A stretch of DNA of 64,000 nt from Saccostrea echinata (Eukaryota). Positions 30,159 through 62,424 of the stretch are shown piece after piece. Under the pieces are notes generated by a model. That model made no database searches, was not told where the DNA came from, and saw only the letters and a list, made by a program, of their open reading frames with translations. Both the position numbers and the translations under genes were made by a program. The stretch spans positions 4,092,001-4,156,000 of the forward strand of contig NW_026889764.1 of the NCBI RefSeq assembly GCF_033153115.1, in the 5' to 3' direction. How positions within the stretch are numbered: the stretch's first letter is position 1; the number at the start of each line of letters is the position of its first letter.

Positions 30159-31613
30159 ACCAAACAGCTGTCTTTTAAATTTCGTGGGTCCTCCACTTCG
30201 ATTGAGTTTTAATAATGACAGGTGTGCTATTAAACATTCGTAAAATTGCCCGCACACATGAATACACTTGAGTTCTGAATTCCATTTAACACAACACTGT
30301 AGGTAAAATAACAAGGCCTGTGATTTCGTCACACCCCCATGACTTCAACCAATGGGGAAGGGCGTAACAATGCCCACCGTAAGCCTCTTTATAAAGTCTG
30401 ACTAGATTTACCAAGTAGATTGTGTACGCACTTTTTACTCCGTTGATTGATAGCCAAATAGGTATCTAATTCATAATTTTTAGTGAGCCACAAAAATGTG
30501 GAGTGATTTGAACAATGACTGCCTATTTAGGTCACAGAAGACCGGCAAAATCTGTTTTGAATTTTAATAAATACAAAGACAATTGGAGACCAAGTCAAAG
30601 AAAGTTCAGACAGATAGAATAAAGAGGCTTAAAACTTTGTTGTGAAAGTTATTTTTATACATCGAATAAGCGGGTCAATGCATTTTGAGAGACTCAGTTG
30701 TCTAATGATATATACTTTACTGCATGGGTACATTTTTCTTCTAACAATCTCAGTGGAATGCAATTTGTGCAGAAAAAGCAGAAGCAGACCGTTTTTGTTT
30801 TGTTTTTTTTAATTTATTACTTTTTAAAAACACATTTTGATGTCAGTCTTCCCTGTTTTGTCAGAAAGTGTACGTGTTTATGTTGAACGAGTGGGTTCAT
30901 TTTTATGATGTTATTTTGGACAAAATTGTCTGACAAAAACTATCCTTGAATAATATTAATTTGACTTTTTGGGGGTGGGGTAGGGAGTAGGAGGGCGTTT
31001 TCGATTTATGTATCAAGCACAAAGTTTGAATTCGATTATAAATGAGGTTACTAGTAGGTGTCAAATCCTAGTCCAAACTTAAGATTTGAGAACTTCGACG
31101 TTTCATGAATTATTAATCATATAATGTTGTATATTCTATTCACTTTTTACAATATTGAAAACCAGGAACAAAATTGCCAATCACGTAAAAAGTTAAACTT
31201 AATTTACTGCAACAGAAGTGTTAGTGAATTATCACGTAGATGTCATCTGGACAGAGAAATTCTCGGGTTTTTTTATTTGTTTGAATTCATATAAAAGTCA
31301 TAATCGTTAATCAGAGCGCATCTACAAAGTATTAGTTTTGAAAATAGAATATTCAAAGATACATAGTTATCAGAATTTTTGTTCGTTGTGTAAGAATAAT
31401 ACCGTATTTTTTTTCTTAAATTGTCCAGTGTATAAAGGTTTGCTTAGGAAAAAAAAATCATGACCTTCTTTAAGGTTCATTGATAACCTGATAAGAGAGA
31501 TAACTCCAACTGGCATACATTACTATTATTCCTGTATGAAATTGTCAAGTTTACATGTCATTTCTGTCAGATTTCGCCGCACAAGGTATGCTAGAAAACA
31601 CAACAATCAAGGT

Positions 31614-31800
31614 NNNNNNNNNNNNNNNNNNNNNNNNNNNNNNNNNNNNNNNNNNNNNNNNNNNNNNNNNNNNNNNNNNNNNNNNNNNNNNNNNNNNNNN
31701 NNNNNNNNNNNNNNNNNNNNNNNNNNNNNNNNNNNNNNNNNNNNNNNNNNNNNNNNNNNNNNNNNNNNNNNNNNNNNNNNNNNNNNNNNNNNNNNNNNNN
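31614..31800. other. Assembly gap (N run)
   Basis: Run of n characters. Confidence 0.99.
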
Positions 31801-34797: not shown

Positions 34798-37435
34798 CTA
34801 GTACTATTTCTATATGTATTGAATGTGTACTATATTGGTAGATCTATTTCTGTCTGTATTGATTGTGTACTATAACAGTAGAACTATTTCTGTCTGTATT
34901 GTGTACTATAACAGTAGAACTATTTCTGTCTGTATTGTGTACTTTAACAGTAGAACTATTTCTGTCTGTATTGTGAACTCTAGCAGTAGAACTATTTCCG
35001 TCTGCATTGTGTACTATAACAGTAGAACTATTTCTGTCTGTATTGTGTACTATAACAGTAGAACTATTTCTGTCTGTATTGTGTACTATAACAGTAGAAC
35101 TATTTCTCTCTGTATTGTGTACTTTAACAGTAGAACTATTTCTGTCTGTATTGTGAACTCTAGCAGTAGAACTATTTCCGTCTGTATTGATTGTGTGCTA
35201 TAACAGTAGAACTATTTCTCTCTGTATTGTGTACTATAACAGTAGAACTATTTCTCTCTGTATTGTGTACTTTAACAGTAGAACTATTTCTGTCTGTATT
35301 GATTGTGTGCTATAACAGTAGAACTATTTGTGTCTGTATTGTGTACTATAACAGTAGAACTATTTCTGTCTGTATTGTGTACTATATCAGTAGAACTATT
35401 TCTGTCTGTATTGTGTACTATATCTGTCTGTATTGTGTACTATATCTGTCTGTATTGTGTACTATAACAGTAGAACTATATCTGTCTGTATTGTGTACTA
35501 TATCTGTCTGTATTGTGTACTATATCTGTCTGTATTGTGTACTATATCTGTCTGTATTGTGTACTATATCTGTCTGTATTGTGTACTATATCTGTCTGTA
35601 TTGTGTACTATATCTGTCTGTATTGTGTACTATAACAGTAGAACTATATCTGTCTGTATTGTGTACTATATCTGTCTGTATTGTGTACTATATCTGTCTG
35701 TATTGTGTACTATAACAGTAGAACTATATCTGTCTGTATTGTGTACTATATCTGTCTGTATTGTGTACTATATCTGTCTGTATTGTGTACTATAACAGTA
35801 GAACTATATCTGTCTGTATTGTGTACTATATCTGTCTGTATTGTGTACTATATCTGTCTGTATTGTGTACTATAACAGTAGAACTATATCTGTCTGTACT
35901 GTGTACTATATCTGTCTGTATTGTGTACTATATCTGTCTGTATTGTGTACTATATCTGTCTGTATTGTGTACTATAACAGTAGAACTATATCTGTCTGTA
36001 TTGTGTACTATATCTGTCTGTATTGTGTACTATATCTGTCTGTATTGTGTACTATAACAGTAGAACTATATCTGTCTGTATTGTGTACTATATCTGTCTG
36101 TATTGTGTACTATATCTGTCTGTATTGTGTACTATAACAGTAGAACTATATCTGTCTGTATTGTGTACTATATCTGTCTGTATTGTGTACTATAACAGTA
36201 GAACTATATCTGTCTGTATTGTGTACTATATCTGTCTGTATTGTGTACTATATCTGTCTGTATTGTGTACTATAACAGTAGAACTATATCTGTCTGTATT
36301 GTGTACTATAACAGTAGAACTATTTCTATCTCTATTGATTGTGTACTATAACAGTAGAACTATTTCTGTCTAAATTGTGTACTATATCAGTAGAACTATT
36401 TCTGTCTGTACTGTGTACTATATCAGTAGAACTATTTATGTCTGTATTGTGTACTATATCTGTCTGTATTGTGTACTATATCTGTCTGTATTGTGTACTA
36501 TAACAGTAGAACTATATCTGTCTGTATTGTGTACTATATCTGTCTGTATTGTGTACTATAACAGTAGAACTATATCTGTCTGTATTGTGTACTATAACAG
36601 TAAAACTATTTCTGTCTGTATTGTGTACTATATCTGTCTGTATTGTGTACTATATCTGTCTGTATTGTGTACTATATCTGTCTGTATTGTGTACTATAAC
36701 AGTAGAACTATTTCTGTCTGTATTGTGTACTATATCTGTCTGTATTGTGTACTATATCTGTCTGTATTGTGTACTATAACAGTAGAGATATATCTGTCTG
36801 TACTGTGTACTATAACAGTAGAACTATTTCTGTCTAAATTGTGTACTATATCAGTAGAACTATTTCTGTCTGTACTGTGTACTATATCAGTAGAACTATT
36901 TCTGTCTGTATTGTGTACTATATCTGTCTGTATTGTGTACTATATCTGTCTGTATTGTGTACTATAACAGTAGAACTATTTCTGTCTGTATTGTGTACTA
37001 TATCTGTCTGTATTGTGTACTATATCTGTCTGTATTGTGTACTATATCTGTCTGTACTGTGTACTATAACAGTAGAACTATTTCTGTCTGTATTGTGTAC
37101 TATATCTGTCTGTATTGTGTACTATATCTGTCTGTATTGTGTACTATAACAGTAGAACTATTTCTGTCTGTATTGTGTACTATATCTGTCTGTATTGTGT
37201 ACTATAGCAGTAGAACTATTTCTGTCTGTATTGTGTACTATATCTGTCTGTATTGTGTACTATATCTGTCTGTATTGTGTACTATAACAGTAGAACTATT
37301 TCTGTCTGTATTGTGTACTATATCTGTCTGTATTGTGTACTATATCTGTCTGTATTGTGTACTATAACAGTAGAACTATTTCTGTCTGTATTGTGTACTA
37401 TAACAGTAGAATATTTCTGTCTGTTTTGATTGTGT
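34798..37435. repeat. 2.6-kb minisatellite of interspersed 22-bp and 36-bp units
   Basis: 22-bp core TCTGTCTGTATTGTGTACTATA with an optional 14-bp insert ACAGTAGAACTAT(T/A); frequent 36+22+22 = 80-bp higher-order period. Confidence 0.97.
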
Positions 37436-39078: not shown

Positions 39079-40600
39079 AAAACATAGGTAATCAAAGATT
39101 ACGAAGCTCACCTCGACGAATGTTATCTACATGTAAGGCAAATTTCACATATTTTTATTCTAGTTAGGGTACATCCCAAGATCAATATCCATGCAAGTTT
39201 GATTTAATTATAGACCTGCTCAAAAACTTTTGACCTGTTTAGTAATCAAGAAAATTTTGGTCACTTCCAACATCCAAAGCAAGTCTGGAAGTTTTCATCC
39301 TCAGATGCACCATCTATGCAAGTTTAATCATAACAGGCCATAATATTATATAGCTACTCCAAAAAAATTACCCTGGTCACTCATCTGGAAAATGTACGTC
39401 AGATTCAGAATCCAAGGCAAGTCTGGAAGTGTCCATCCCTAGATATATCATCCATGCTAATTTGGTTAAAATATGGCTAAAATTCACTCATGTGGAAAAT
39501 CTAGGTCAGATCCAGCATTCAAAGTAGGTTGGTTAGTGTACATCCCTAGATGCATCATCCATGAAAGTTTGGTCTGGGTAGGGCTTATAGTTACTTGGGA
39601 ACAAGACTACTCCTAAATCTAAACCTGGTCTCACATGTGGAAAATCTAGGTCAGATCCAGCATCCGAAGCAAGTGTGGTAGTGTCCATCCCTGGATGCAT
39701 CATCCATGCAAGTTTGATCCAGGTAGGGCTTATAGTTACTTAGGAATGGACCTGCTCCTAAAACTTTAACCTGGTCACTCATCCGGAAAATCTAGGTCAG
39801 ATCCAGCATCCGAAGCAAGTGTGGTAGTGTCCATCCCTAGATGCATCATCCATGAAAGTTTGGTCCAGGTAGGGCTTATAGTTACTTGGGAATGGACCTG
39901 CTCCTAAAACTTTAACCTGGCCACTCATCTGGAAAATCTAGGTCAGATCCAACATCCGAAGCAAGTGTGGTAGTGACATCCCTAGATGCATCATCCATGC
40001 AAGTTTGGTCAAGGTAGGGCTTACAGTTACTTGGGAATGGACCTGCTCCTAAAACTTTAACCTGGTCACTCATCCGGAAAATCTAGGTCAGATCCAGCAT
40101 CCGAAGCAAGTGTGGTAGTGTCCATCCCTAGATGCATCATCCATGCAAGTTTGATCCAGGTAGGGCTTATAGTTACTTAGGAATGGACCTGCTCCTAAAA
40201 CTTTAACCTGGTCACTCATCCGGAAAATCTAGGTCAGATCCAGCATCCGAAGCAAGTGTGGTAGTGTCCATCCCTAGATGCATCATCCATGCAAGTTTGA
40301 TCCAGGTAGGGCTTATAGTTACTTAGGAATGGACCTGCTCCTAAAACTTTAACCTGGTCACTCATCTGGAAAATCTAGGTCAGAACCAGCATCCGAAGCA
40401 AGTTTTGTACTGTCCATCCCTAGATGCATCATCCCTGCAAGTTTGGTCCAGGTAAGGCTTATAGTTACTTGGGAATGAGACTTGCTCCTAAAACTTTAAC
40501 CTGGGACGCCGACGCTAACGCCGACGCCGACACCGACGCCGACGCCGACGCCGGGGGTATAGCATAAGCTCATCTCGACTTCGTCGAGGTGAGCTAAAAA
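39079..40600 (-). mobile_element. Helentron/HINE-like element, family C, carrying a 146-bp tandem array
   Basis: GTAATC-aaa-GATTAC hairpin and GCTCACCTCGACGAA at the left; (GACGCC)n and GCTCATCTCGACTTCGTCGAGGTGAGCtaaaaa at the right. Units recur at ~39771, 39917, 40062, 40208 and 40354 (period 145-146), with decayed units toward 39160. Confidence 0.8.
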
Positions 40601-41650: not shown

Positions 41651-44600
41651 ATGTCGTCCCAGAGCTTTGTAGGCAAGGAGAGCTACCGTGTAAAGTGTGA
41701 GGAGGACATCTTAAAGATTCCAGATCTCATGACAGCGCGAGAGTATATGAAAAGCTGGGGACTCCAAACTAGGGGAATTAATAATACAGAACAAGCCGTG
41801 CAGATCCTGGTGGATCACTGGAAGAAAAATGAGAAACAAACCAAAGAAATTGTTAAGACCGAGGTAAGGAATTGTGAAAACGTGATTTAAAGTTGTGAAA
41901 TGGAAAGATTTCGGAGAAAATGTAAAGGGAAAGGCATTTAGGAAAAGGGGGGATATAATTTTTTTTTTTTTTGAACAATGGAGTCAAGAAAAACCCCAGT
42001 TTTAAATTTGAGTTATTAGTACATTTATATAACGAAATTTGCATCGATACATCGTAAGTAATTGCTTTTTAAGGGTGTTTTACTTGTATTTAATCACAAA
42101 ATATGTTGAGAATAAACGTAGTTAAAAATGACACTGGATCAGAATAATTTTAAAATAGTACAGCTGAAAATATAGAGGACTGCAGACAAGAAAGAGTTCA
42201 TATTTTCCTTGGTGATAAAAATAATCCAGAATGAGAGGACACCAATACAAAGCTAAAAAAAATATGATCAATAATGCAAACACGAGGATGGATCTAGAAA
42301 TGTTGTAGAAAGTGACGGAACACAGTTGGATTAAATAATGACTATTATTTTAAGTAATTTTTGTGAAATATTCAGATGTACTGTACATTTTTGGTAAAGC
42401 GTTTTATCATGACTTTTTCTTAATTAGCTTTTATTAAAGATTGCACTTTTTCAAAAACTACCATTTTAATTCACTTCCTTGTTCAAAATGCATCCATGCA
42501 TTTAATATTGATTTTAAATACCAAGTCATCGTTGAGATTAAGGTCCTGTCAATATTATTTCTGAAGTTTGCATATCAAATCGAAGTGTTTTTAAAAATTT
42601 AATACCTAGAATATGTTTATCATTTTTGATTTTTATAGGACGAAAAGAAGGTAACGCATTAACTGTGCTTCTTTGTGTAATTAAAAAAAGAAACACCGGT
42701 TTTGGAAATGTATAGATAGAGTTGTCTGATTTCTCTGTTTTGTCAATTAACAAAAAGAAACGCTTTTAAAGACTACTAGGGCGAGGAATAATTAAGCTTT
42801 CTTATAGCAAATTTGTAAACAATTTTATTGAAGCGTTTGGATAAATAAGAATGGGAATATTGACAATCTTTCATTTCACCAAGTGCTCATGTTCTTATTA
42901 GTCCCCTACCGGTGAAACCGGAGGGGACTATAGGTTTCCTCTGAGTCTGTCCGTCCGTCTGTCCGTCCGTCTAGCTGTCCGTCTGTCCGTCTGTCTGTCT
43001 GTCTGTCCCTCTGTCTGTCTGTCAGTCTGTCCCACTTGGTTTTCCGCACTTTTTTCCTAAACGCTTGCAGATATTAAACTGATTTTTGGTATGTGAGTGT
43101 ATCTTGATGAGTTACAGATCAAGTTTGCATTTCGTTCCGCTTCATTGATTTTTGACGGAATTACGGCCTTTTCAATTTTTACGTGTTTTCCGCAATTTTC
43201 TTCTAAACGCTTGTAGATATTGAGCTGATTTTTGGTATGTGGCTTTACCTTGATTAGTTATAGATCAAGTTTGCATTTCGTCCCGCTTCATTAATTTTTG
43301 ACGGAATTATGGCATTTTCAATTCTTAACGGGAACAGAACCAGATTACACTTGCCGGTAGGGGACTAGTATTGCTCATGCAATACTCTCAGAATGCTTGT
43401 TTTATTTTAAAGTATTTATGTGTGAATAAATAATTAGTAGCATGGATGTATACATGTACATAGTAATGTGATGAACACAGCCAACTTATATTTACAATCA
43501 TGCTTATAGAATGATAATATTGTTGTCTATCAAAAGCAAATATAGAAAGTATACCTTATGCATTTAATAATAGATTTATACAATTAGTATTTGGATGTGT
43601 TCAGTACCTATCAAAACAGATCAAGGACAAACAATATACATGTACATGTATATATCTGTATGTATTCGTATTTAACAGATATTTTACTTTGTATTTTATA
43701 ATTACCTAATTTCATTATTTTTGTAACAAGGATTTTTATTATTTGGTTTTTTTTTTTTATCTGCCTCTCCAAACGCTTTAGAAATGCACTCAAACCAGAG
43801 GCTTTCATTTACGTTACATTATTCTCATGATACATAATCATCTTTCTAAATACAATTTTAAGACCTTAAATTGTGCGATTTTGTTCGTTGTGTCTCCAAG
43901 AGCTTTTATATTTCTTCTTGTTTATGTGTATTCTAGAATGAATTTTCTAGCGCTTTCAGAGAAACACGATACTTGTAATGTAAGAGCAGAATCTCGTATT
44001 ATTAGTTTTCGCCGCGATAATTCTAGATAAAAGGCTAGCTCCACACAAGCCTTATTTTCCTATTTGCTGTTTCAAAGTGATACAGTAATTTATTCAAGTG
44101 TAACCATGTATACATTGTAGAAAAAAATATGGAAACACGTAACGGCATGGATTTTGGGTTAAATATCAAATTACACTTGATACTCCCTAATCAAAATACC
44201 CTCCATTTATAACTGTACATCACGATTTAATTACTATTAAATTGGCTTTGTAGATATCCAATGGCTTCCAAGAAGCTATGTTTGATGATCATCGCAAACG
44301 CGAAAAACTTGGAATCAAAATCGATGAGACGCTTGAATTCTTCGGAAGGTTACCAAGGCAACAACAGAGCGACCTATTGCGGTTCATTCCAGACCTTGTG
44401 CATAAATGTGAGGTCCGAAAACACGAGCTCATGTCTCCGGAATGCACAATTCTTGTAGCAGGTAAGTTGAAAAATGAATACAAGTGTTACATATTAAGAA
44501 ATTCTGAGAGATAGAATGTTAAACAAAATCTTGATATCTTAAAACATAAAAACATCCATGATCTTCCTCCCTAGGGGAAACAGGCGCAGGTAAAAGTAGC

Positions 44601-47600
44601 TTCATCAACCTTCTGCTAGAGACAAACATCCTCCCCACCAAACAACTAGCCTGTACCAGCACGTTCTGTGAGCTTCACAAGAGCAGAGATAACCGTAAGA
44701 CCGCCACATTCTATTACAAGAACTTTGAAGGTAGGGGGGCGAAATCTCCGAAGAAGATCGATATCAGTTCAAAGGAAGGTTTGAAAGAACTGACCAATGG
44801 AATCACAGAAATTGACGAGTTCATGGACGAAAGTCCCTACGAAAAAATCATAATCCAGTACCCCTTCCCATTGCTAGAGGTAAAAGTCATATAACTTCTT
44901 GTCTTATTGTAAAGGCTTCCAACCTTTATATGATATTTGATTCTTTAATCATAGAGTTGACATAAACGAGTAAAATCTAACGCCTTCTCCTTTAAAATTA
45001 ATCCATCATTCATCATTTGTTTCGACATCCGTATCCAAGCTTTCTGTTTTTTCTGTGGTAATTAAAGAACTATTAAATGTGCTTTTTTACCCCATGATAC
45101 TTTTTACCATTTGAAAGAATCCTTTTTGTTGTGTAACTGCTTCAATATTGATTGAAAGGAGGGGATCGTATTGGTGGATACTCCAGGTCTTGGAGAAAGT
45201 AAAAGTCTGGTAAAACACGTCAGCAAATATCTGGAAAAATCATTTGGCTTTATTTACGTGGTCAACAGCTCCAATGCTGGCGGAGTACACGAGGGGAGGG
45301 TAAATACCTAGCAAATTTTGAATTAAAAAGGTGTAATCTAAATTGTTGAAACGTTCCCAGCAAAATATGTCGTAAATTTAAAAAAAAAAATCAGAAAGAT
45401 GTTACGTGTACACGTACTTATGATGCATTTTCTTTAACATTTCCAGCTGAAAGACTTTCTCCGGACTGTTATTAACATGAGTGATGAAGAATTGCACCAC
45501 GATAGCACCATGTTTATTTGTAATAAATGGGAAACCGTGCCCGATAAATATAAAGAAGAAGTAAGAGACGACACAATGCGGAAGTTACAAAAATTCTTCC
45601 GGAATATAACAGAGGATCAGCTGTTTTTCATGTCCGTGGACGAGGTACTCCAAATCAATTTTTCAATCAGAGGGGTCATATTCTGGCATTTAAGTTTGCC
45701 ACCAGTAATCTTTGAAATACAAATATTTCAAGCCTGTTTTATGAAAATGCATACATCGTCTCTCATTCTGTCTCTAACTATTTAGGCACAGAAACACTAC
45801 GCCACGCTTGGTAAAATGTCACCGGAACATCATACCATGTTGACTGGAATACAGAGATTACTTCCGGCTAGTCTGGAGAATAAATTGAACCTTCACTATA
45901 GGTAATTACTGCCCATTTATCTCCCTAGGAAAGATCGCAAGATTACTGTTCTTAGAGATAAAGTGAAGTATGTTGATATCATGTTAAATAATACGATATA
46001 TTTTGATATTCAATTTGCAGTGTTACTAGGATTTGAAATCTTTTAGACATAATGAATAAACAGTTTCAAATAGTAATCAAGCTTTCGGTTTATTAATATT
46101 ATGATATTATTATAAATGTTTTGCATCCTCAGGTTTATATCTCAAATCCTGAAAAGATCTATCTACTCCTTAAAAGTTGCGAAAAACATGGCGAAATGTG
46201 ACAACATTGAGAAGCAGAAACTGATTGACGACATCAGGTCACGAATGCAGACGATCCAATGTAAGGCTTTGCAATCAGTGGACGATCTTCGACGAGGAAT
46301 GGAACATGAAATTGGAAGTCTGCACAAAAGTTTGACAAGTATAATAAATTCCGAGGAATTCCGAAAAGCTTGTAAATTCTGGGATCCGAGGGAATGTCCA
46401 GGATCAAAGGATTCGAAGAAACTTATTCGAGATGCATCAGAACTTATTGAAAATCGCGTCTGTATGAACATAGACAAGTGGGAGAGGCAATATAAAGTGA
46501 TAAAGACTCTTAAAGATAGGATTATTGCCAAACTGAGAAGGGACTGTGAACTTATGGAAGACCAGATTCGTGAGATAGAAAGTAAGTATTTTTAATTTAA
46601 TCAGTTTTAATTATAAGTACAAAAATGCATATTTAAGATCCTATTTGGCGGCGCCATCTTACAATTATATTTCAATAAATCAATTAACTTTTTATTAATT
46701 TTTCCCCTTATTGTCGAAGGTACTCTTATTGCTGGCGAAAATGCTATCATCAGAGATCTACACAAAACAATAAAAGGCGATCCAAGGGGCAAGAAACCTA
46801 AAAACAAAAAGAAAGACGACAAAAAAGATGACAGGACTGCCGACCTCAAAGTTAGATCGCTAGGGGGTGCTGTTAGTATCGCCGGGAGATTCGACAATAG
46901 CAAAGGAATCAAGTCTTTTTTCAAGACTTACAAGAAAAAATCACCGGAAGTTAGCATGGCGGAAGCAACCGATCTTTACATTCAAAATATTCTTAATTCG
47001 AAAGAACTTTACAAAAATATAGAAATTTTTCTTATGCGTTATACAAAAGGAATTGATATGGTGGCTCGCAAAATTCCGGATTTTATCGCCTCTGACGAAG
47101 AAATGATAATGGAGATAGAAAAGCAGCTTCAGGAGTCTGCTGATTGTATGCACGAAGTTCCAGAACTGATTCGAAAGTGTACTGCTTTGCTGGGAAATTT
47201 AGACTTGATATATGTTAATGATATCATGCGCAAGGACTACCGGTTGAGAGATTTGGAGTGGAGTGACAAATCAAGGCTCGGAAGTGGAGCGTTTGCTGAT
47301 GTATACGCCGCCAAACTACGGCAGGGTAACAAATCCGAAAATGTAGCCCTGAAGTTGTTTAAAGATCCAGTTAAATCTAACACTGTGAGCGATATTTTGC
47401 TGGAGGATCGCACGATGAGGTAACTATTATCTTATTCTTTATCTTGAAGGGAGAAAAATCGCGTTCGCTTGGTTTAAAAATTACTACTGTTGAGTTCAAA
47501 TGCATCATAAGGAAAGTTTATATGTTTGTTTTGTGACGTAAAGTACGCAGTTTATAACAATACTGTAGAATAGTTAACTTGCTGACCCTAGATAGTTACT

Positions 47601-49565
47601 CAAAATGGTGTTGCAAGTGTGGTCCTAACTAATCTTTTACATACACATTTATTAATCTGAAAATATATTCAATTCAAAGGAATGCATTTTTTATTTATTT
47701 TGAATCCATTATCGATTTATGTATTATATTGATTGATTGATTTGTGTTGTTTTACGTTCCTTCGAGAATTTTTCACTCATACAAGGTCTCATCCGAAGGA
47801 CCCGAAACTTTCACTCCAAAGTGCCGAGTGCTTGATGAAGGAACAGTTGCTACCTATTTTTTATCGACAAAGACCTCAGTCGCGGCCGTGATTGGAACAC
47901 ACGACCTGCCGATCGCGGAGCGAGTGCTCTACCGACTGAGCTGTCGTGACGGTGTTGTTAACTACTGAAATGCATCTCGTAACAGAAGACTAAAAAAAAA
48001 ACCAAACAAACCTGCTTCCTTTTGATCTTAACACACGAGTGGCATTTCAGTATTATACAATATTGAGATACAATATTGTGTGGCATTTCAATATTGTATA
48101 ATTTTGAATGCTACTCATATGTTAATATCAAAAGGAAGCAGTTTTTTTGGTCTAATATATACCGCAAAATTTAAGGTAATAAATATATAAAATGATATTG
48201 TCAGAAATATAATGCAAATTACATCGTTTTTATGGAGAAACATGCAATTATTCACACTTGTCAGTGTTTTGAGGACGGAATTGCTGAACAGTTATGATCT
48301 CGTGTCCTTTGAAAACTGTTTTTCATCATATTCATACCTGGTCAAATTTCTGTTTGCTCAGTATGTCCTACGAAGCATTGTTTTGATTACGTATTTCACT
48401 CGGAATTACGATGTCGAAAAGAGGCATTTTGAGTTTATTTCATTCTTTTGTTAACAGTGTAAAGTGAAAACAAAAAACTTCACCTTCAATAAATTTTATT
48501 TGTTTCCTTATATGGTTAGATGTAGATGCAAGCCATATTCATTTAATAAATGAGTTTACAGTAACATAAAAATTTGAAAATGGAATTGTCATTTAGGGAG
48601 ATGGACCACCGCAATTTGATTCGTTATTATGGCTGCACTCTCCAAGTTAAGGACAGGGGTAAATTGCATTGGATAATGATCTTAGAATTTTGCCAGTGCA
48701 CACTCAAAGACAAAGTTATCAACGACGATTATCAGAACCCCGGAACAGTTGACGAGGCGTTACAGTTAAGACCAAAATTGGAAATGGCACGATATGCCTC
48801 ACAGATTTGCCATGGGCTAGAGTATCTCCATGCAAAGGACTTGGTACATAGGGACTTGAAACTGGAAAACATCCTGGTAAGTCTGTGTTTATTACTTTGT
48901 AAACCCTTTCCCAGCGACAAATTAATGGTAAAATAATAAATAAAAGAATTAAATCACTTGTACAAATACTCAATAAGTACTTCAACAAATAAATAATCAG
49001 AGTAAAAGTCTTGTAAACAGCTGAAAAGAAGTTCGTCTTATGATGCACAAACTAGGAAATGAAAAGTGCACTAAAGTTTTTGATTTTATTTTAGATTCAA
49101 TAAATATTTTTTTTTCGAAATATTGTTTTCGTTTTCCAGCTAACTAAAGACAACGATGTAAAGTTAACCGACGTCGGTCTCTCTAAGCCCCAGGGTGATA
49201 TTTCGGGAACTCTCGCGGGATCCCCGGTTTACATGGCACCGGAAATTCATCTACAGAAAGGGATCTATAACCGGAAGGCTGACATATTTAGCCTCGGTAT
49301 CATGTTATGGGAAATGTGGTATGGCATTGACGCAGCAGACCATATTTCTGAAGTTCTCTCAAAGAAAGGATTTAAAGCCTCGGAACTTGGAATCCTTTTG
49401 GAGAAAGGACTTAGGCCGGAAATGTTTGACCGTTATCGTCCGGATCAGGAGTGGAGCAATCTCATCGTCCAATGCTGGACACTGGAAGCGAGACAACGAC
49501 CAGAGGCTCGCCATGTTCGCAGATTCTTTGACGATTTCTTACATTTGAATTCGCGAGTAAAATAA
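41651..49565 (+). CDS. Dynamin-like GTPase / protein kinase fusion (DSTYK-like family), ~1015 aa
   Basis: Exons 41651-41863, (42639-42650 microexon, tentative), 44254-44461, 44575-44879, 45159-45299, 45447-45644, 45786-45901, 46133-46581, 46720-47419, 48597-48876 and 49140-49565; all GT-AG and phase-consistent. GTPase motifs: G1 GETGAGKS, G2 ILPT...CT, G3 DTPG, G4 NKWE. Helical middle region. Kinase motifs: GSGAFA, VALK, HRDLKLEN, DVG, GSPVYMAPE, DIFSLG. Confidence 0.9.
42895..43402 (+). mobile_element. Helentron/HINE-like element, family B, in an intron of the GTPase-kinase gene
   Basis: TTATTAGTCCCCTACCGGTGAAACCGGAGGGGACT hairpin start, (GTCY)n microsatellite, ~125-bp tandem units, end CCGGTAGGGGACTAGTATTGC...GCAATAC...cttgtt. 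Confidence 0.8.
47729..47953 (-). mobile_element. tRNA-derived SINE
   Basis: The minus strand begins ...CAGCTCAGTCGGTAGAGCA (A box)...GTGTTCCAATC (B box) and ends in an (AATC)n tail. Confidence 0.7.
47987..48153. repeat. Short foldback (inverted repeat)
   Basis: CTGCTTCCTTTTGAT...TATACAATATTG pairs with CAATATTGTATA...ATCAAAAGGAAGCAG. Confidence 0.6.
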
Positions 49566-49944: not shown

Positions 49945-51700
49945 AAAAATCTTCAAACAAACAAAGTTGTGAACAGGGCATAAAACAAGGACCCCCTTAA
50001 ACTCCAGAGGTAGGATCAGGTGTCTAGGAGGAGTAAGCATCCCTTGTCTACCGGTCACACCCGCCGTGAGACATATGAATTGATTAGGTAGAAGAAGCAA
50101 TCCATAGTCAAATTTAGTGTAAAAACAATCGCTAAACACTTGGTATGAAACAAGTCGGCCAAAATATGACCAATGATAGGTTATGTTTGCTAACAAGGTC
50201 ATTATAACGACGCACAGAATGTTGACTTTAAATAAGGTTATTGAAATCCTTTTAACATCAACTTATCTGTAAGTAACCCGATTCGGTTTAAAAATGATCA
50301 GAGATGATACTCGGAGAATACTCTTAAGTATCGAATAAGTTTGAAGACGTAAACACCGCATGCAGGTGATAGCGGAATGTTACTACATTAATAGAGAAAG
50401 TTGATGGAAAAGTTTAAGTCATCTTGTTTGTCATACAATTCGGCTGTTAGTTTGCCCTTATCGTCTGCAGTCAGTTAAACAACCAAATATGAAGGAAATG
50501 TGACAGACTCTGTGATGTCTTTTAGTTCAAGTTCACTGGGATATATCGAGTCGTGTTAATTGATCAAACGTCTTCGATATATCTGAAAGTCCAGTTGAAG
50601 GTCTCAGCAAATGTTTGAATTCTTCTTCTCATGTAGAAGATTTTGTCAATGAATAAATTCTGCTTCATCGGAATATGAAAACTGGTCGGCTAATAAAGGA
50701 GCACAAATAGTTCCCATCGAAATTTCAACAGTTTTTTGGAAGATCAGATCTCAAAAAAACTACATAAATGTTGTCAGTGGGGAATCTTTTTAATGTCAAG
50801 TTCAGAGTACTCTTGTGTACAATCAGAATGATTTTTATCAATGTAATTCTGTTGATGACCAAAAAACAAGTTAAAAAAAACTTCCGAGTTCCATTTTTAC
50901 TGAAGTAGCAATTGTCTATGATATTAAAAAAACATAGTTTTTAATTTATTATCATGAGGGATGGTTGTATAAAATGAAGAAAGGTTGTACGTTTTTCCTG
51001 TTGTTCTTTGAAGTTTTTGAGAATCCACATCTGATTTACATCGCTTCTAGAATATGCTTTAACACAGTACGTCTGAAGTCTCTCATTTACAGCAGTTAAC
51101 AATTTTGTGAGGAGTAAAGATAGGTGCTTGGTAAAGCATCTGCTGGACACGGCTACATATATGTATGTATCTCTGTTTATGAGAGAAGTTTAAGAATCCA
51201 GTATATAGGTAGGGTATATCGAACTCACCTTGCATGACTGGAATGTTTAAAGTATTAAACAATGAAATGTGATTTTGAAGAATTTCATCTTTAGAAAGTG
51301 AACTTTAAGTATAATTTGGAATTTGGATTTCCAGACCTAGAATTAAAACTAAATTCAATAAACAAAGTCATAGTAATGAGCTTTACAAACAAAGAAGAAA
51401 TAGTTACAAACCTTGTCTGTTGGGACCATATCATATTGTTCAATTAGTCTTTCTAATTCTTTTATCACCCCCAATTTAGTGAAAAAGGAAAAAATAAATA
51501 TAGTTCGCATATTGCCTTTTTACTCTCTAATACACTCCTTCATATATTTCTGAAACACTTAATCCACTCTGACGAAGTGTTCAGGTCTTCCTTTTCATAT
51601 ATAACCCAACATCTGACATAATCATCTCAATAATTCATAAAAGAAATGGAGTTCTATTTCCAATTGAAAGATCGAGGCTCACTATTTAGGACATTTTAAT
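49945..51700 (-). mobile_element. Degraded Penelope-like retroelement (RT remnant, possibly Naiad-type)
   Basis: Minus-strand fragments VPTDK..., HLSLLLTKLLTAV...NQMWILKN, ISMGTICAPLLAD (RT motif B) and FRYIEDV (YIDD-like), plus a conserved 3' structured motif at 50009-50067; many stops and frameshifts. Confidence 0.7.
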
Positions 51701-51762
51701 ACAATGGATTTAAGTCTTCATTTTCAGCTATATTAACATCACGAGTAATGACGTTTCCAGCG

Positions 51763-52960
51763 TATGGTGTTCCGTTGGGACCTCTCGCACCTTCGCACTC
51801 TCGCCTTTAGGGCGAAGATGCGAGAGTAAGAAGTAGCGAAGGCGAAAGAGCGAAGGCGAAGGAGCGAAAGTGCGTAGATGCGACGGCGAAGTGCGAAGAT
51901 GCGATGGCAAAGCGCGAAGATGCGAGAGCGAAAGTGCGAAGTTGCGAAGGCGAAAGTGCGATATTAATATCGCTCCTTCGCCTTCGCACCCTCGCACTCT
52001 CGCCTTTGCATTTTCACACCCTCGCACTTTCGCCTTTGCAACTTTGCACTCTCGCATTTTCCCCTAAAGGCGAGAGTGCGAAGGCGAAGTTGCGAAGGCG
52101 AAGGAGCGAAAGTGCGAAGATACGACGGCGAGGCTGCGAAGGCGAAGGAGCGATACTAATATCGCACTTTCGCCTTCGCAACTTCGCACTTTCAACTTCG
52201 CACTTTCGCCTTCGCATTTTACTTCTATGGAGCTCTTTATCGTTATGAGTTAACTTTAGTGGACTCTTGGATGTTATTGGTACGCATGCGCTAGATTAGT
52301 GTGACGGCGCAAAAATGGATGCTAAGCAATGGTTGAAATTCATTGTACAATGACGATTTTACTAATGAATATACACTTGCTTTTTTATGAATCGAGAAAT
52401 ATTGTAATTGATAACTTGACACTCTAATTTTATATACAATGGTAGATTATATACTGTAATGATGGTAAATGATTGTTGTACCTGGTGCACGAGCAAAATT
52501 ATAGATATATATGTATTCGTAGTGGTGGTGTGCATCACAATCTCAACTAAAGGACATGGAACATAAGATTTTATCATGATCGATAAACTGTAAAAAGTTT
52601 GATTTTGAGATATTGATTTATCCTTGTGTAATATAAATGTGCATATATGCAGTAGATGTGCTTCGATCTACATTGTAAGCATACGATAGAGAACGCCACC
52701 AAAAAAAAAAGGTGAAGGCGAAATTGCGAAGGTGCGAGGGCGAAAATGCGAAGTTGCAGAGGCGAAAGTGCGATACTAGTATCGCTCCTTCTCCGTCGCA
52801 CCTTCGCCCTCGTAACTTCGCGCTTCGCCGTCGCATCTTCGCATTTCGCTCCTTCGCCTTCGCAATTTCGCACTTTCGCCTTCGCAACTTCGCACTCTCG
52901 CATCTTCGCCCTAAAGGCGAGGTGCGAGTGGCCCCAACGGAACACCATAGAAACACCATA
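51763..52960. mobile_element. IS3EU-like non-autonomous DNA transposon with GCGAA-rich subterminal arrays
   Basis: Termini TATGGTGTT...AACACCATA, long imperfect TIRs, exact 6-bp TSD CCAGCG (51757-51762 and 52961-52966); 6-7-nt GCGAAG/GCGAAAG modules at 51785-52215 and 52712-52920. Confidence 0.75.
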
Positions 52961-53485
52961 CCAGCGGGACTGCAGTTGACAGGAGCAGAAAAAGAACACG
53001 TAAGAGGACTTTGTTTTCGATGTTAAATATGTAACTTATTAGATCATTGAAATGACAAATTAGATACAACATTAAAATAATGACACACACATAACATACA
53101 CAGGGTACTGTAACAGAGTACATGTATGTGCAACATGGAAAGTAATTGATAATTGAAAGGAATAAACATAGATACCAAACTATACAGAACATTTAGAGTT
53201 TAAACGAGAAACATTCGGGGAAAAGTACCAAAATACACAACAAAATACAAAACATTCTGGGTGTCTTGTTAATGAAATTACGAAAAATATAATTAACCTA
53301 AAAAAAGGTTTTTTTCATCTCAATCGGATGAGTAGTTGCTAGAATGTTCACCTCAAGGACAAAAAAGTACCGAAAGAATTATTAAATGATCGTTTGTTAT
53401 GATACAATGAAACACCCAGCATTTCGTATTTATCTAATGGTAAGTAAATATTTCTGTATTTTTTTTTAGCTTAGATAAAAGATCG

Positions 53486-55989: not shown

Positions 55990-58900
55990 TTATCGTGTTT
56001 CACTTCCCACATCAAACGTTTTAATAATACCATCATATTCACGTTTGATTCTAATAAGACGTCCAGATGTCTCTTCGCGTTTATTGAAATCTTTTGAATT
56101 TTCAAATGCTACAATCAGTCGGTGTAATTCACCCTTTGCACGGTTTAGAGTTAATAACATTTCTTCTTTCAATCCTAGAGTGAACTGAACGTCAATCAAT
56201 AACTCAATACAATCAATAATGACAAGATTGACAGGGTTCTGTTCAATAATTAGATCACATAATCTTAATTCAATTTGTAAAATTCTTTCAGCTTTTTTAA
56301 ATTTTCCAAGAGATATAAGACACTTTGCATAATTGTAAGCGAGATCAAGTAAAGTAAGATCTGTCACTGATATTTTATATTTCAATTCAAGCGCCTGTTT
56401 GTAGGCTGGTACTGCCTTTTCAAAATTTCCTAATTTCATGTAAGCTTTCCCAAGAATCTCAAAAAGCATAGATCGAGCATCATAGTAATAATCGGATATA
56501 TTTTCAAACCGCTGAAGACTATTGGTAAGCAGAATTACGGCCTTTTCATTTTGACCCATTTCTATTAAATTTTCTGCAACATTTCTTTCAGAGACTATTA
56601 TAGCCTTTAGAGGGGCTTTTGTCTCCAACTTTATCTCTAAACTTTTTTGGAAGAAATGCGCTGCCTTTTCCCGGTCTCCTTTATTTTTATACATTATTCC
56701 CATGTTGTTCATTACAGAACCAATAATAGGGTGCTTCTCTGTTCCAATAACGTGGAGTCTTCGTCTTAACACTTCAAGTTGCAAAGGTTCACCTTTCCCG
56801 ATACGGCCTGTTAAAATTGAAAGATTTGCTTATATTTACGTATCCTTATACCTAAACTTTTACCTCATGATTCGGTTTTTACCTTACCTGATATATTGTA
56901 AAATATTGCAAGGTTCTGCATTGTTTGAAGGATAAGGTGTTCATAGTACATTTTCTGTTCCTTTTCGACTTCAAGTGCCATTTCTAAAACACTAGTAAAT
57001 GTACGAAAATCAGTGAACATAAATTACCTGCACATGAAAGAAATTTCTAAAATGAAAATACAAATATCCCCGCTGGAAAATTGTCTCAATGACAATTGTA
57101 GGTTTCTTAGTGACACCACTCAGTATTTAAAAAATAAAATTACAATCGAAGATTATATTTGTATTACCTAAAAGATTCCGTAAACTTCCCTTGACATCCA
57201 AGATTCCAACCGTAACTTTGACATAAGTGAGCAAGGTAAAAGTCTCTTCTTTCGGGATGGCGTTTTCTTAATTCAAATGCAACTCGAAACATGTCCTCTC
57301 CCTCGTCATAATTTCCCTAAAATTCATTTGACGTCATTGGATTTTAAAAATAATTGGATGGATTTATTTCTGTGAAAATATGTTAATCATAAAATAAATT
57401 GGATTGTGACAACCAATTCATTTATACCTTAATGTTCGTGAGGACCCTTCCATATCCTGTTAACACTTTAGATTCATCTATTTCCTCTTTGAACTCTCTA
57501 GTTTTTTGCAAGCATTTCTCAAAATATTCTATACCAAACTCTGTCAAAGAACACTCAAATATCAAATATATTCACTGCGTCGTTTTCTTTTCTTAGTTAA
57601 TATAAATAACATTTCCAAAGAAAATTTTGCGGAAAGAATTTCTTCTAAATCTTCTCAATAAAGATTTGCAGAGTTGTTTAGCCCATTCTCTAGTTTTCAG
57701 TAATTTAAATTGTTTCTGTCAGTAAATTGAGCTTATCATCAGTAATTTCGTGTTGGTTATACCTTGGCTCATTTGATATCTTTTAGATATGAATAATTTT
57801 ATTGCTATGTTCTTATCTGTTTTTTTTCATCATGTATCATACATTATTAATAAATGGGACTTCGTATATAAATCATTATCCCTATCATTACTTAAGTCTT
57901 AAAATTACATAGGGAAAACAACTAAAATTCGGAGCATGAGCATGACTAATACACGTAGGTCAATTAATATTCGTTATAGTAAGCAGCTCTGTATGGTTCG
58001 TACCGTATGTTGTCATGGCAGTGAATAGAATAGCTCCGTCTGCAATAGTGGTGGCTGCTAAATCTACAAACACAGGGTACGTGTCCTCTGTGCAATGAAT
58101 GACGTCAGTGAACAGTTGCTGAAAATTTTGGTGTTCCACATTCAACATACACATCGCCCCTGCGTAATCTTCTGTTTGTGATTTCTTCTCTATTTCTTTT
58201 AATATATTCGCAAATGTTTGACAAAATCTTCTTCGAACACCTATAATATGTAATAATAATTTATTCTTGAATTAGACTTTCTGTAATTGAAAATTGAAAA
58301 TCACTATCAAATGAGATTTACCTTCTAAATCTTTAATTTTTAAATATTCCCGTATACAATCTCGCAGGATTCCATGAATGTTGAGTCTTCCCGTAAGATC
58401 AGGCGATACATGATGGTGCTGAAGTAGGGTTCGTAATGAATCCTGACTTTCTTGGTCGGAAATTCCTTTCAAATATTAAAGTGTCATAATTTGTTTTATT
58501 GTGATTATTTGATGAATAAAGGAGATAAATATGTATTGGAGTAGATACCTAAAATTTCCGTGACCTCTTCTTCGTTAAATGATCCAGGTATGTAGTTAAT
58601 GACCGCCAAATGTTCTTTTAAAGTCGCTGAGAGGCGATCCAAAAATCCTTTATACATTGAATCTGAAAATGTATGAGTATACATTAAAACTTTGTTTCAA
58701 ATATTTGTAAATTATCGGCAAAGCTTTTCCCTGATGTACTTATATATGTAAACAAGAGGCCCAGGGGCCACATCGCTCACCTGAGCACTTTGGCTAGGAA
58801 AAAGCAGAATTCACTTTAGTATTGAAAAGTTTAAATATAGAAAGGGGTATGATTTAAACACTTGGATCTACACTTCCTATGGATGCTTTTTGAATTAATA

Positions 58901-59656
58901 TGACACATAATGGCTTTGCTGTTCTTGAGATGGAAATTTTTATTGATATATCCTTTATAATTCCTTTGTATAACTATGATCCCCCTGTTATGGCCGCTCT
59001 ATTCTCGTGGGGGAGGAGGGAGGGGGGTATCATGATTTGAACAAATTTAAATCTACATTACCAGAGGATGCTTTTTTATTATTATGACCAATTATGGGCT
59101 TGTTCTTGTGAAGAATTTTAAATATTTTTCCTGTGTATTCCTAGTATATAAAACTTTGATCACCCTTTGTGGCCCGACCTTAGCCCTGGGGGTTATGATC
59201 TGAACAAACTTGAATCTGCACTACCTAAGGATTCTTGCATATCACAGCTTTGGTGTTCTCTAGAAGATTTTTGAAATATTTTTCTTATGTATTCCTTTGT
59301 AAAACTTTGATCACTCATTGTGGCCCCACCCTAACCCCAGGGGTTATGATTTGAACAAACTTGAATCTGCACTACCTGGGGATGCTTCCACATAAATAAG
59401 ACCAGTCCCAGCTTTGGTGTTCTCGAGAAGAAGATTTTTTAAAAGATTTTTCTTATGTATTCCTATGTAAAACTTTGATCCCCCATTGTGGCCCCACCCT
59501 AACCCTGGGGGTCATGATTTGAACAAATTTGAATTTTTACTACCTCACAATGATTCCACATAAGTTTCATGTTTTCAAGCACAGTAGTTCTTGAGAAGAA
59601 TTTTAAATGATGCCATTAGTTTTTCACAAAATCATAATTATCTCCCGTTGAAAGAA

Positions 59657-59704
<48 letters not shown>

Positions 59705-60636
59705 ACTTTTGGCAAGTTTGGTTGAAATTGGCCCATTGGTTCTTGAGAAGAAGATGAAAATGTGAAACGCTTACGACAAAGACAACAACGAGAACGACGA
59801 CGACGACAGACAACGGACAAATTTCGATCAGAGTAGCTCACTTGAGCCTTCGGCAGATTTCTTAAATTTACCCAATAATTACTTAAATATCATATTTCAA
59901 CAAATTATTTAAAAAGATTATTCTATCTCTTACCTACTCGTTCGTCTTGAACGTAATATTCCGAGCTCAGTATCCTTAATCTGCTCCTACTAAGAAGCTC
60001 AATAATATCATCTGCATCCAGAGGGTTACTGTCATCTGCAATTTCGGCTCCAGACAGAATTAATGCCAGAGGGATGCCCTCACAAAGTTCTACGATTTTT
60101 CCAATTTTAGTTGCCTCTATCAGTGAAGGACATACATATCGAAATAATTTCACAGAGTCTTGATGACACATTGGACGTAAGTGAAAATCCTCGAAATTTT
60201 CTCTCCACATCGATAAACAAGTAATAGATGTTACCAAAATTTTGATGTATTTTGTTCGAGCAAGACTCTCAATAATGTGATTTGCAAATTCAAATTGACT
60301 TTCGTTGAATATATCTTCAGCATTATCGAAAATTATTAGATAAGATGCTTTCCTGTAGGCAATATTTTCTGTGAGAATAACCAACATTTCGTCAAGGCTC
60401 TCGTTGGTAAAGGCCTCATATAAAAAATGACGACCTAAAGCTTTAAGTAATCCTTCACAATTAACAACATTTTTTAAATCTACCCAAATAGATTTACAAT
60501 CGACCAAGTCACAAAACCGTCGTGCTATTGACGATTTTCCTATAGCTTTCAATCCGTGAATGACGATTACATCAGACTTAATGTATTTATTCATTACCTC
60601 TCCGAGTTCTTCGTCTCTTCCTATAAAGGTAGCCAT
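55990..60636 (-). CDS. NB-ARC (STAND NTPase)-TPR protein, NLR-like, ~793 aa, 8 exons
   Basis: Exons 60636-59934, 58662-58549, 58465-58322, 58240-58004, 57540-57428, 57316-57168, 56991-56888 and 56807-55990; all GT-AG and phase-consistent. Motifs: FIGR, Walker A GLKAIGKS, Walker B YLIIFDNAED, KILVTS, GxP CEGIPLAL, MHD-equivalent IHG. C-terminal TPR-like repeats (e.g. HPIIGSVMNNMGIMYKNKGDREKAAHFFQKSLEIK). Confidence 0.9.
58750..59854 (-). mobile_element. Helentron/HINE-like element, family A, filling intron 1 of the NB-ARC-TPR gene
   Basis: aaacaagaGGCCCAGGGGCC...GCTCACCTGAGC at one end; ~5 units of ~150-180 bp (atgatttgaacaaa...gaatct); (GAC)n; the other end is truncated after GCTCACTTGAGCCTTCGGC. 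Confidence 0.8.
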
Positions 60637-62424
60637 CTTGTTTATTCTCTACATATAAGAACTTGCGTCGTTTCTACTGTTCGTACTTCAGCAAAATTTA
60701 TTCAAAAAGAACAATGCTATATAAGCATGATAACAATCCATTTATTTGCCCTCTTCTGGGTTTAAAAAACCGTACCTGAATGCAAAGTGTGAATTATTTC
60801 TACAGGTATATGATACTTTCTCATAGAAGGACCATTACTCATACTTTTCAGAATTGTCTTAAACAAAGTCATTTAATTTCTTTCAAAACTAAGAAACTTA
60901 ATCTTAAACAACGCTATTTATATATATAAAAAAAAAAAAAAAATAACCGATCCAGAGATCCAGGACCAACAGTGGCTGTCAGCTATCATCCGCAACTGTA
61001 CTCGGCAATGCTGGTACCGGACATCCATGACTGTACCTGCTCACTAATATCAAAAACGGAATGTCAGAGCAAGATTTTCCGGATTGTTCAACGTATTAAA
61101 CTATATGTTGTTGATTAAGTATGGATTGTTTTTTAATGAAAAATACGAAATGTGTTAATATGGAGGAAAGAAAATTTCTGATTTTAAATAAATCTACTTT
61201 ATGGAAGGCTGTAATCGCCAAAACGGTAACAATAACTGGCTTAGTGAATATATCGCGGAAAATATATGTAAGCTTGACTATGCCTAAATCCATTGTATGA
61301 ATCGCTATTATCTCTAAAAAGTAACATTTACTACAGCGTACATTTTGTATATCTATGACTGTATCCTGTGCCTGATATACAACATCTGCGACTGTACCTG
61401 TGCCGTACATACACACTACCACTGACTCAACTCGAGCTTGATTAATAACATCCACAACAAAAAATTCTGTGGATTTTCTCCGATTTAGATTTAGACTGAA
61501 TTCAATCAAAGCGCAATTAACGCTAATCTTTATATAACCCATGACAGTGATACCGAGACAAACGATGTCAGCAGTAATTAGGGAAGGATCCAAAACTTTT
61601 ACAGATTTAAGTTTAAAGCTTTATGTTCAGAGTACAATATGAGCCAGGTCTTTAATTTTTTTTTTGGGGGGGGGGGCTGGGGGCATGATTTCAATATCCA
61701 AAGTGCTCAATAATAATGATGAATTTAAAATGAAACATGCTAGTATAATTATAGAAAATATGCGAATAAACAATAAACAAAATAAAATAAAAAAGGAAAT
61801 TAAAATAAATATTGGAATTAATTTGTAATCCTTAATTTTATGTTAGAAAGTATAAGTACGTCACAATATTATTAATTTCACCCATTTCATTGATCACGCA
61901 AGTGGTGTCAATGAAAAACACAGGTTTTTTCCCATAAATATATGTCTTACGATATATACGGGTGGAATGGGCTGATTCACCCGTTTTCAATGTGTTATAT
62001 ATAAACATCTCAAGTGCACCCCAGGAAGTAGCCTCCTATGCCCTGCATGAAAAAGAATAGATCCTGACAAAAAAAAACTTTATTTATTTACAAAGTACAT
62101 AAAATTTACTAGGCACAGGCATCAAAGTTGTAAAAATAGACTGGAAGACCCCCCCCCCCTCCCCCCCGAAAAAAAATAAATTCTCAAAAGAAATAAAAAT
62201 TAATTTTATATGCATGGAACAATTAACATCTTGACTGGTCGATAACCGTGGTGTGATACCTGAAATATGTAGGGTATGGTATTAAAATAATTGATCATAT
62301 TAAAGGAAATTAATGCTATAATTATCGATAACATCCGAAGAAAATATTTGTATAAGTAAATATTTTTATTAGATCCACCTCTCTAAGATTCTGCTGTACT
62401 ATCCAGACAACTCTAGAAATTTTA

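Follow-up and report, generated by a model that had tools for sequence, protein, structure and literature searches.

The window analyzed in this study is a 64,000-nucleotide stretch of Saccostrea echinata DNA (contig NW_026889764.1, positions 4,092,001 to 4,156,000 of the forward strand), and positions are counted from its first letter. The + strand carries a gene that encodes a dynamin-like GTPase and a protein kinase in one protein, and the catalytic motif sets of both domains are intact. The gene model consists of 10 exons, every junction is GT-AG, and the single open frame gives 1011 amino acids (aa). The model was compared with transcript contigs from four public runs (X1, X3, X4 and X5; at most three samples, two studies), the RNA nature of which was guessed and in which splicing was read from GT-AG joints. 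The features of the gene are as follows.

41651-41863, + strand: exon 1 (coding), aa 1-71; ATG and GT donor; joined to exon 2 in X4 and X5
42639-42650, + strand: optional microexon of 12 nt, in frame; preceded by AG and followed by GT
44254-44461, + strand: exon 2, aa 72-141; contains the beginning of G1 and the first helices of the neck
44575-44879, + strand: exon 3, aa 141-242; G1 P-loop (K147) and G2 threonine (T168)
45159-45299, + strand: exon 4, aa 243-289; G3 DTPG
45447-45644, + strand: exon 5, aa 290-355; G4 NKWE
45786-45901, + strand: exon 6, aa 356-394; end of the G domain and a neck helix
46133-46581, + strand: exon 7, aa 394-544; helices of the neck and trunk, with a modeled fold that matches bacterial dynamin-like protein (BDLP), IniA and MFN2
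46720-47419, + strand: exon 8, aa 544-777; Lys-rich tip loop, LGGAV, return helices, last neck helix and kinase N-lobe
48597-48876, + strand: exon 9, aa 777-870; kinase core with HRDLKLEN; joined in 4/4 runs
49140-49565, + strand: exon 10, aa 871-1011 and stop; DVG, activation segment, S/T894, APE and C-lobe

Introns were joined at the predicted GT-AG sites in 9/9 cases in X4, 9/9 in X5, 8/9 in X1 and 7/9 in X3, and a single X5 contig of 2948 letters spanned exon 1 to exon 10. These contigs are short-read assemblies rather than single molecules, and each junction was in frame. One message encodes the GTPase and the kinase in a single protein, as an earlier sequence-only reading of this DNA had supposed. 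Two separate genes were ruled out, because the junctions between the G domain and the kinase were all joined in frame and the homologs are single proteins. A pseudogene or chance frame was ruled out by the open GT-AG frame and by the variant pattern. The 31 coding variants listed comprised 25 synonymous and 6 non-synonymous changes, the ratio of non-synonymous to synonymous polymorphism (pN/pS) was approximately 0.06, and none of these listed variants lay in a catalytic motif.

The same earlier reading had described nine exons at 44254-49565 that join at GT-AG into an open frame, with the G1 glycine codon split at 44461/44575, and both points were confirmed. Its gene extent was incomplete: the start lies 2.6 kb upstream, and the coding exon at 41651-41863 and the optional microexon had been missed. 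It had also held that all four GTPase motifs appear only after splicing. One G1 codon is indeed split, but the unspliced exon-3 frame already reads GETGAGKS. Inclusion of the microexon inserts 4 residues at the boundary of the N-terminal module and the neck; X1 and X3, which come from one sample, use the microexon, and X4 and X5, from two other samples, skip it. The 3' untranslated region extends to at least 49870 in an X1 contig. Dispersed repeats with very high contig depth were found in introns at 42895-43400 and 47740-47880.

The 1011-aa model contains the GTPase motifs G1 GETGAGKS (K147), G2 T168 in CT, G3 DTPG (D249) and G4 NKWE (N315). The kinase motifs are the Gly loop GSGAFA, VALK (K755), E772, HRDLKLEN (D863, N868), DVG (881) and GTLAGSPVYMAPE. 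By sequence, this corresponds to the full set of an active Hanks-type kinase: Gly loop, VAIK lysine, αC glutamate, HRD aspartate, asparagine, DxG aspartate and APE. The profile search suggested earlier as a check matched both domains. Pfam Dynamin_N matched exon 3 by itself (E 1.7e-10), PK_Tyr_Ser-Thr matched exon 8 (E 2.7e-5), and Pkinase matched exons 9 (E 4.5e-14) and 10 (E 8.3e-14). P0001, a full-length protein of Saccostrea cucullata with 91% identity, matched Dynamin_N at 3.6e-20 and Pkinase at 2.2e-42; it had no Pfam match to Roc or COR at E 0.01. The N-terminal module (exon 1) had no convincing Pfam match, nor had the module in 12 family proteins. In the P0001 model it is a small three-helix unit (helices 16-20, 25-34 and 45-59), and aa 14-60 (window 41690-41830) aligned in 77/91 family rows, from sponge to amphioxus. 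The module may resemble a helix-extension-helix (SAP/LEM-type) fold, for which Pfam gave no support.

Structure models were built on P0001 as a stand-in for the window protein. The whole model had a predicted local distance difference test (pLDDT) score of 76 and a predicted template modeling (pTM) score of 0.65, and its matches included Nostoc BDLP at rank 3 over 725 columns, besides kinases. VIA with the whole model returned kinases only. For the N-terminal model (pLDDT 77), the best Foldseek match was BDLP 2j69 (E 1.9e-17) together with 2j68, followed by IniA, MFN2, SynDLP and Fzo1. VIA with the N-terminal model gave Fzo1 at Z 27.6 (root-mean-square deviation (rmsd) 5.5, 350 aligned), MFN2 at Z 26.5 (rmsd 12.3, 376 aligned), SynDLP at Z 23.2, IniA at Z 21.0 and BDLP at Z 20.5 (rmsd 9.5, 523 aligned). 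LRRK1/2 followed at Z of about 13, over the G domain only (approximately 170-180 residues aligned). A profile of 11 kinase-less family fragments matched BDLP at E 5e-27, compared with about 4e-14 for mitofusins. The structural matches reach model residue 644, which indicates that the last helix returns to the neck. The first ~700 residues are thus predicted to form a BDLP/mitofusin fold, by sequence nearer to Nostoc BDLP than to mitofusin, and the kinase is predicted to be attached to the final helix of the neck, at the side of the G domain. The Foldseek, VIA and profile matches agree with the BDLP/mitofusin-type, non-Roco scaffold assumed before. Roco identity was ruled out, since there was no Roc/COR Pfam match and the segment that follows the G domain aligned to helical bundles of the dynamin-like type.

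The trunk tip differs from both reference folds. Its net charge is +11, a Lys-rich loop is followed by an LGGAV-type motif, and the hydrophobic paddle is absent. The best 19-residue hydropathy window was 1.11 in the whole protein and 0.46 in the trunk tip, which does not reach the level of a mitofusin-type transmembrane anchor.

Related proteins were collected by three word-index searches (13, 19 and 218 matches) and a full profile search, for which the best 150 matches were listed. The 144 new matches among these included 86 with both domains, 15 with the GTPase only and 43 without the GTPase; the last were multi-kinase proteins and fragments and were left out. The two-domain matches sized 850-1200 residues make up the 70 distant full-length members referred to below. 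A species check of 30/86 two-domain matches named 27, from sponge, soft coral, bivalves, gastropods, brachiopod, nemerteans, hemichordates and amphioxus, and an octopus member was present among the 218 word-index matches. Vertebrates, arthropods and nematodes did not appear among the 30/86 members checked, which does not show their absence. Near-exact short patterns were required in the scans of other sources, so that a blank is weak: 0/29 pattern matches in viral contigs were confirmed, prokaryote genomes gave 0/93, and a metagenome scan with P0214 gave 1 weak match of 28. Database names of the members were "uncharacterized", "Fer-like", "DSTYK-like" and "MAP3K12", and JGI calls one RIPK5.

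Trees were quick IQ-TREE and FastTree builds. In the G-domain tree, 34 family rows and one kinase-less oyster protein formed one group (support 0.94) against 36 other dynamin-like matches, with mitofusins not in the tree. The kinase-less P0046 of Ostrea edulis (842 aa) has two Dynamin_N stretches, and its G domain nests within the family tree. In a quick tree, the window protein clustered (support 100) with proteins of Saccostrea, Ostrea, Magallana and Pinctada, within a clade of 23 rows (support 1.0) in which every named member is a bivalve or gastropod. Saccostrea has at least three family types, and oysters carry a hairpin-bearing type (P0158) and hairpin-less types (P0001, P0037). A search of the window (tblastn, with 8 family proteins and three profiles) revealed no tandem paralog. 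Two Branchiostoma floridae members, BRAFLDRAFT_81321 and 81322 (P0141 and P0163 clusters), one kinase-intact and one kinase-dead, have consecutive gene numbers; this numbering suggests an adjacent kinase/pseudokinase pair. Judged from these sequences, the family is ancient, with sponge, cnidarian, mollusc, brachiopod, nemertean, hemichordate and amphioxus members. The earlier description of a lineage-expanded, uncharacterized family was right in that the family is multi-copy and no description was found, and needs correction in that the window gene is not a recent lineage-specific copy but one-to-one across oysters and Pinctada. No published description of a Dynamin_N + Pkinase family, or of a dynamin-like domain in DSTYK, was found in the literature searched, which did not cover subscription journals and bioRxiv supplements. 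The word "kinase" is absent from the main text of a dynamin-superfamily survey (PMC11789081).

The two catalytic domains are conserved to different degrees. Every GTPase residue checked was retained in 69-70 of the 70 distant members, and five jointly in 67/70. The four kinase catalytic residues occurred together in 36/70; this comparison is biased, since proteins with a dead GTPase and a live kinase would have scored close to or below the limit of the best 150. Several clades are wholly kinase-dead. The hydrophobic hairpin at the trunk tip was present in 32/70 distant members and in 0/35 rows of the window's clade. In that 35-row clade, all checked G and kinase catalytic residues were found in 33-35/35 rows: K147, S148, T168 and N315 in 35/35, and D249 and G252 in 33/35, where both misses are gaps. 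S/T at position 894 of the activation segment was present in 35/35 rows, the tip net charge was +3 to +12 in 35/35, and the LGGAV-type motif was conserved. Every named row of the window's clade is a mollusc, and the clade is kinase-intact and hairpin-less, whereas other family clades are hairpin-bearing and/or kinase-dead.

By residue conservation, the GTPase body appears to be the constant core of the family, and the kinase an output that turned pseudokinase in many lineages. The "gated kinase" proposed earlier therefore captures only part of the family, in which catalytic residues are kept in the GTPase rather than the kinase. The middle residue of the DFG-type triplet tolerates other hydrophobic residues. 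DVG had been presented as a special feature; it occurs in 33/35 rows of the clade, and of the 70 distant members 19 have DVG, 11 DLG, 4 DFG and 2 DMG. DVG as a sign of a dead or unusual kinase was ruled out, being usual in the clade and common in the family.

The kinase resembles that of DSTYK, as had been noticed from the sequence. The activation segment has 25 residues, as in human DSTYK, with 12/25 identical by eye and DVG here versus DLG; a 25-residue segment was found in 49/52 kinase-intact family rows. DSTYK clusters ranked directly after the family clusters in an Atlas search (0.95), as the nearest named cluster. Both proteins have a C-terminal kinase, a non-DFG triplet and a similarly long N-terminal region. 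The difference is that the Atlas DSTYK clusters have no Dynamin_N match, whereas the window protein has the full GTPase motif set. A mollusc DSTYK-like cluster (972 aa, 55 members) also lacks Dynamin_N and is distinct from the mollusc Dynamin_N + kinase cluster. No full-length DSTYK appeared among the family-search matches listed or the top 60 PDB matches, and the DSTYK activation segment was in none of the 144 new top matches. The window protein is probably a paralog of DSTYK rather than its ortholog. In human DSTYK, the corresponding position presumably carries a degenerate P-loop-like sequence.

Published accounts give human DSTYK a DLG triplet and a kinase starting at residue 648 (PMC6930252), and set it apart from RIP kinases (PMC9573974). 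Its N-terminal region is termed "non-catalytic" in a passage of one paper (PMC6981171) and of unknown function in a passage of another (PMC8490499). DSTYK is reported on late endosomes/lysosomes, which its overexpression enlarges (PMC6981171). Notochord vacuole fusion was reported to require DSTYK kinase activity (PMC7012607), and STING to be phosphorylated by DSTYK on late endosomes/lysosomes (PMC11933320).

The surrounding 64-kb DNA is intron-rich and of animal type. A multi-exon gene at 55990-60648 on the - strand faces the GTPase-kinase gene; it has a STAND-like P-loop exon (AAA_22 E 1.8e-6, NB-ARC 7.5e-5) and a TPR exon (TPR_12 9e-20), and looks like an NB-ARC/TPR immune-type gene. The - strand at 28770-30344 has an open stretch of 524 codons, in which a LIM domain (E 7.7e-9) follows a long region of low complexity. 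A membrane-anchored protein that resembles TEX264 has its exons at 12442-17785 on the - strand, with no Pfam match on the exon tested. Tandem arrays were present at 34800-37400, 39500-40500 and 51700-53000, one of them with units of ~146 bp, and an N gap lies at 31614-31800.

In this study, we propose that the protein is a soluble GTP-switched scaffold that binds acidic membranes via its basic tip, and that assembly clusters and activates the kinase domains; we consider this proposal evenly balanced between right and wrong. A soluble BDLP-type GTPase-neck-trunk scaffold would be switched by GTP, and its basic trunk tip would bind acidic membranes. GTP-dependent self-assembly on the membrane, as in Nostoc BDLP, would then cluster the kinase domains and lead to trans-autophosphorylation at S/T894. 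We infer GTP hydrolysis, kinase activity, membrane binding, self-assembly and this phosphorylation for the protein. The membrane would likely be endolysosomal, by analogy with DSTYK. Nostoc BDLP is reported to bind anionic lipid and to form a nucleotide-regulated scaffold (10.1101/2025.05.27.656310), and the lipid-binding site of BDLP and Cj-DLP2 has been placed at the trunk tip (PMC6104087).

Several results weigh against this proposal. At least one of the four kinase catalytic residues is missing in 34/70 distant full-length members, so kinase activation cannot be the universal purpose of the family. The pTM of 0.65 makes the placement of the kinase relative to the G domain uncertain in the whole model, and the tip loop has a pLDDT below 50 in both models. 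Loss of the hairpin could equally mean no membrane binding. When the non-kinase part was searched in the Atlas with Dynamin_N clusters left out, the clusters listed were all bacterial (0.83-0.91), with no DSTYK cluster among them. The comparison with DSTYK therefore draws chiefly on the kinase, and this search speaks against a simple homology of the two N-terminal halves.

The conservation contrast also allows control to run in reverse. The protein would then mainly tether or remodel membranes as a GTPase; its kinase or pseudokinase would serve for regulation or docking, by phosphorylating or binding the GTPase or a partner paralog, possibly in hetero-pairs. We regard this as rather unlikely for the window protein, while several family features point toward it: the better-kept GTPase residues (67/70 versus 36/70), the wholly kinase-dead clades, the consecutive kinase-intact and kinase-dead amphioxus genes, and the coexistence of hairpin-bearing and hairpin-less types in oysters. 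Bacterial dynamin-like proteins are also described as working in hetero-pairs (PMC6104087). However, the residue count is biased against GTPase-dead, kinase-live forms, kinase and GTPase are retained with equal strictness in the window's clade, the conservation of the kinase equals that of the G domain against most paralogs, and the window holds no paralog. A third reading, compatible with either wiring, is a cell-autonomous innate-immune GTPase (GBP, IRG or Mx-like) that coats pathogen-containing or damaged membranes and signals via the kinase. It seems improbable, given a slow-evolving gene that is one-to-one from oysters to Pinctada, and adjacency to a single immune-type gene is weak. Eleos LeoA/LeoBC profiles matched P0015 (LeoBC E 3.8e-14) and were not among the 25 matches listed for P0001; these matches are generic, since 14/14 other dynamin-like proteins (13 prokaryote-type and one oyster protein) also matched, and for 13 of these the E-values were similar to those of family members or better.

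That the window gene is the mollusc one-to-one DSTYK ortholog is highly improbable. The length of the activation segment and the K-L-x-N catalytic loop are the same as in human DSTYK, the pre-kinase length is similar (647 vs 644 residues from the neck start), and some members are labeled "DSTYK-like" or "RIPK5" in their sources. Against this stand the separate mollusc DSTYK-like cluster without Dynamin_N, the lack of the DSTYK activation segment in the 144 new top matches, the at least three family types in Saccostrea alone, and Dynamin_N at E 3.6e-20 in P0001 but absent from DSTYK clusters.

The soluble, GTP-switched scaffold invites a wider and more tentative proposal, which we would place somewhat below an even chance: animals may have a BDLP-derived lineage besides mitofusin, in which membrane assembly driven by GTP turns on an attached kinase directly, and the GTPase-degenerate survivor of this lineage may be human DSTYK. 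If so, the 647-residue N-terminal region of DSTYK would be a dynamin-like body, which would explain its late-endosome location and its role in vacuole fusion, and the oyster protein would offer a soluble, intact system for studying GTPase-kinase coupling. Membership of DSTYK in the family would also account structurally for two thirds of the length of a human kinase that is linked to disease.

The individual parts of the protein are well known, and their pairing can already be seen in automatic annotations, where the names are misleading. Unnamed invertebrate Dynamin_N + Pkinase proteins have the same domain order over ~1000 residues. Multi-copy across at least seven animal phyla, the family is nameless in the literature searched. 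The window contributes a member that is confirmed by transcripts and intact in its GTPase and kinase active sites, a difference in conservation between the two domains that extends across the family, and a mollusc clade lacking the hairpin. The window protein has no transmembrane segment and retains both active sites, which makes it a practical choice for purification.

Compared with known systems, the protein shares a G1-G4 G domain, neck and trunk with Nostoc punctiforme BDLP (2j68/2j69) and the bacterial dynamin-like proteins IniA (6j72), Cj-DLP1/2 (5owv) and SynDLP. It differs from BDLP in being encoded by an intron-bearing animal gene, in its extra N-terminal module and C-terminal kinase, and in the basic loop that replaces the hydrophobic paddle. 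MFN1/MFN2 and yeast Fzo1 likewise combine a G domain with a helical-bundle neck closed by a C-terminal helix, and Fzo1 and MFN2 gave the highest VIA Z with the N-terminal model. Unlike mitofusins, the window protein has no transmembrane segment, carries a kinase, and matches them more weakly in sequence than it does BDLP. LRRK1/2 (Roco) also join a GTPase and a kinase in a single chain, but theirs is the Roc-COR small-GTPase class; known animal GTPase-kinase fusions (Roco/LRRK) use a small-GTPase module. A dynamin-like mechanochemical body wired to a kinase would be a design different from that of Roco/LRRK.

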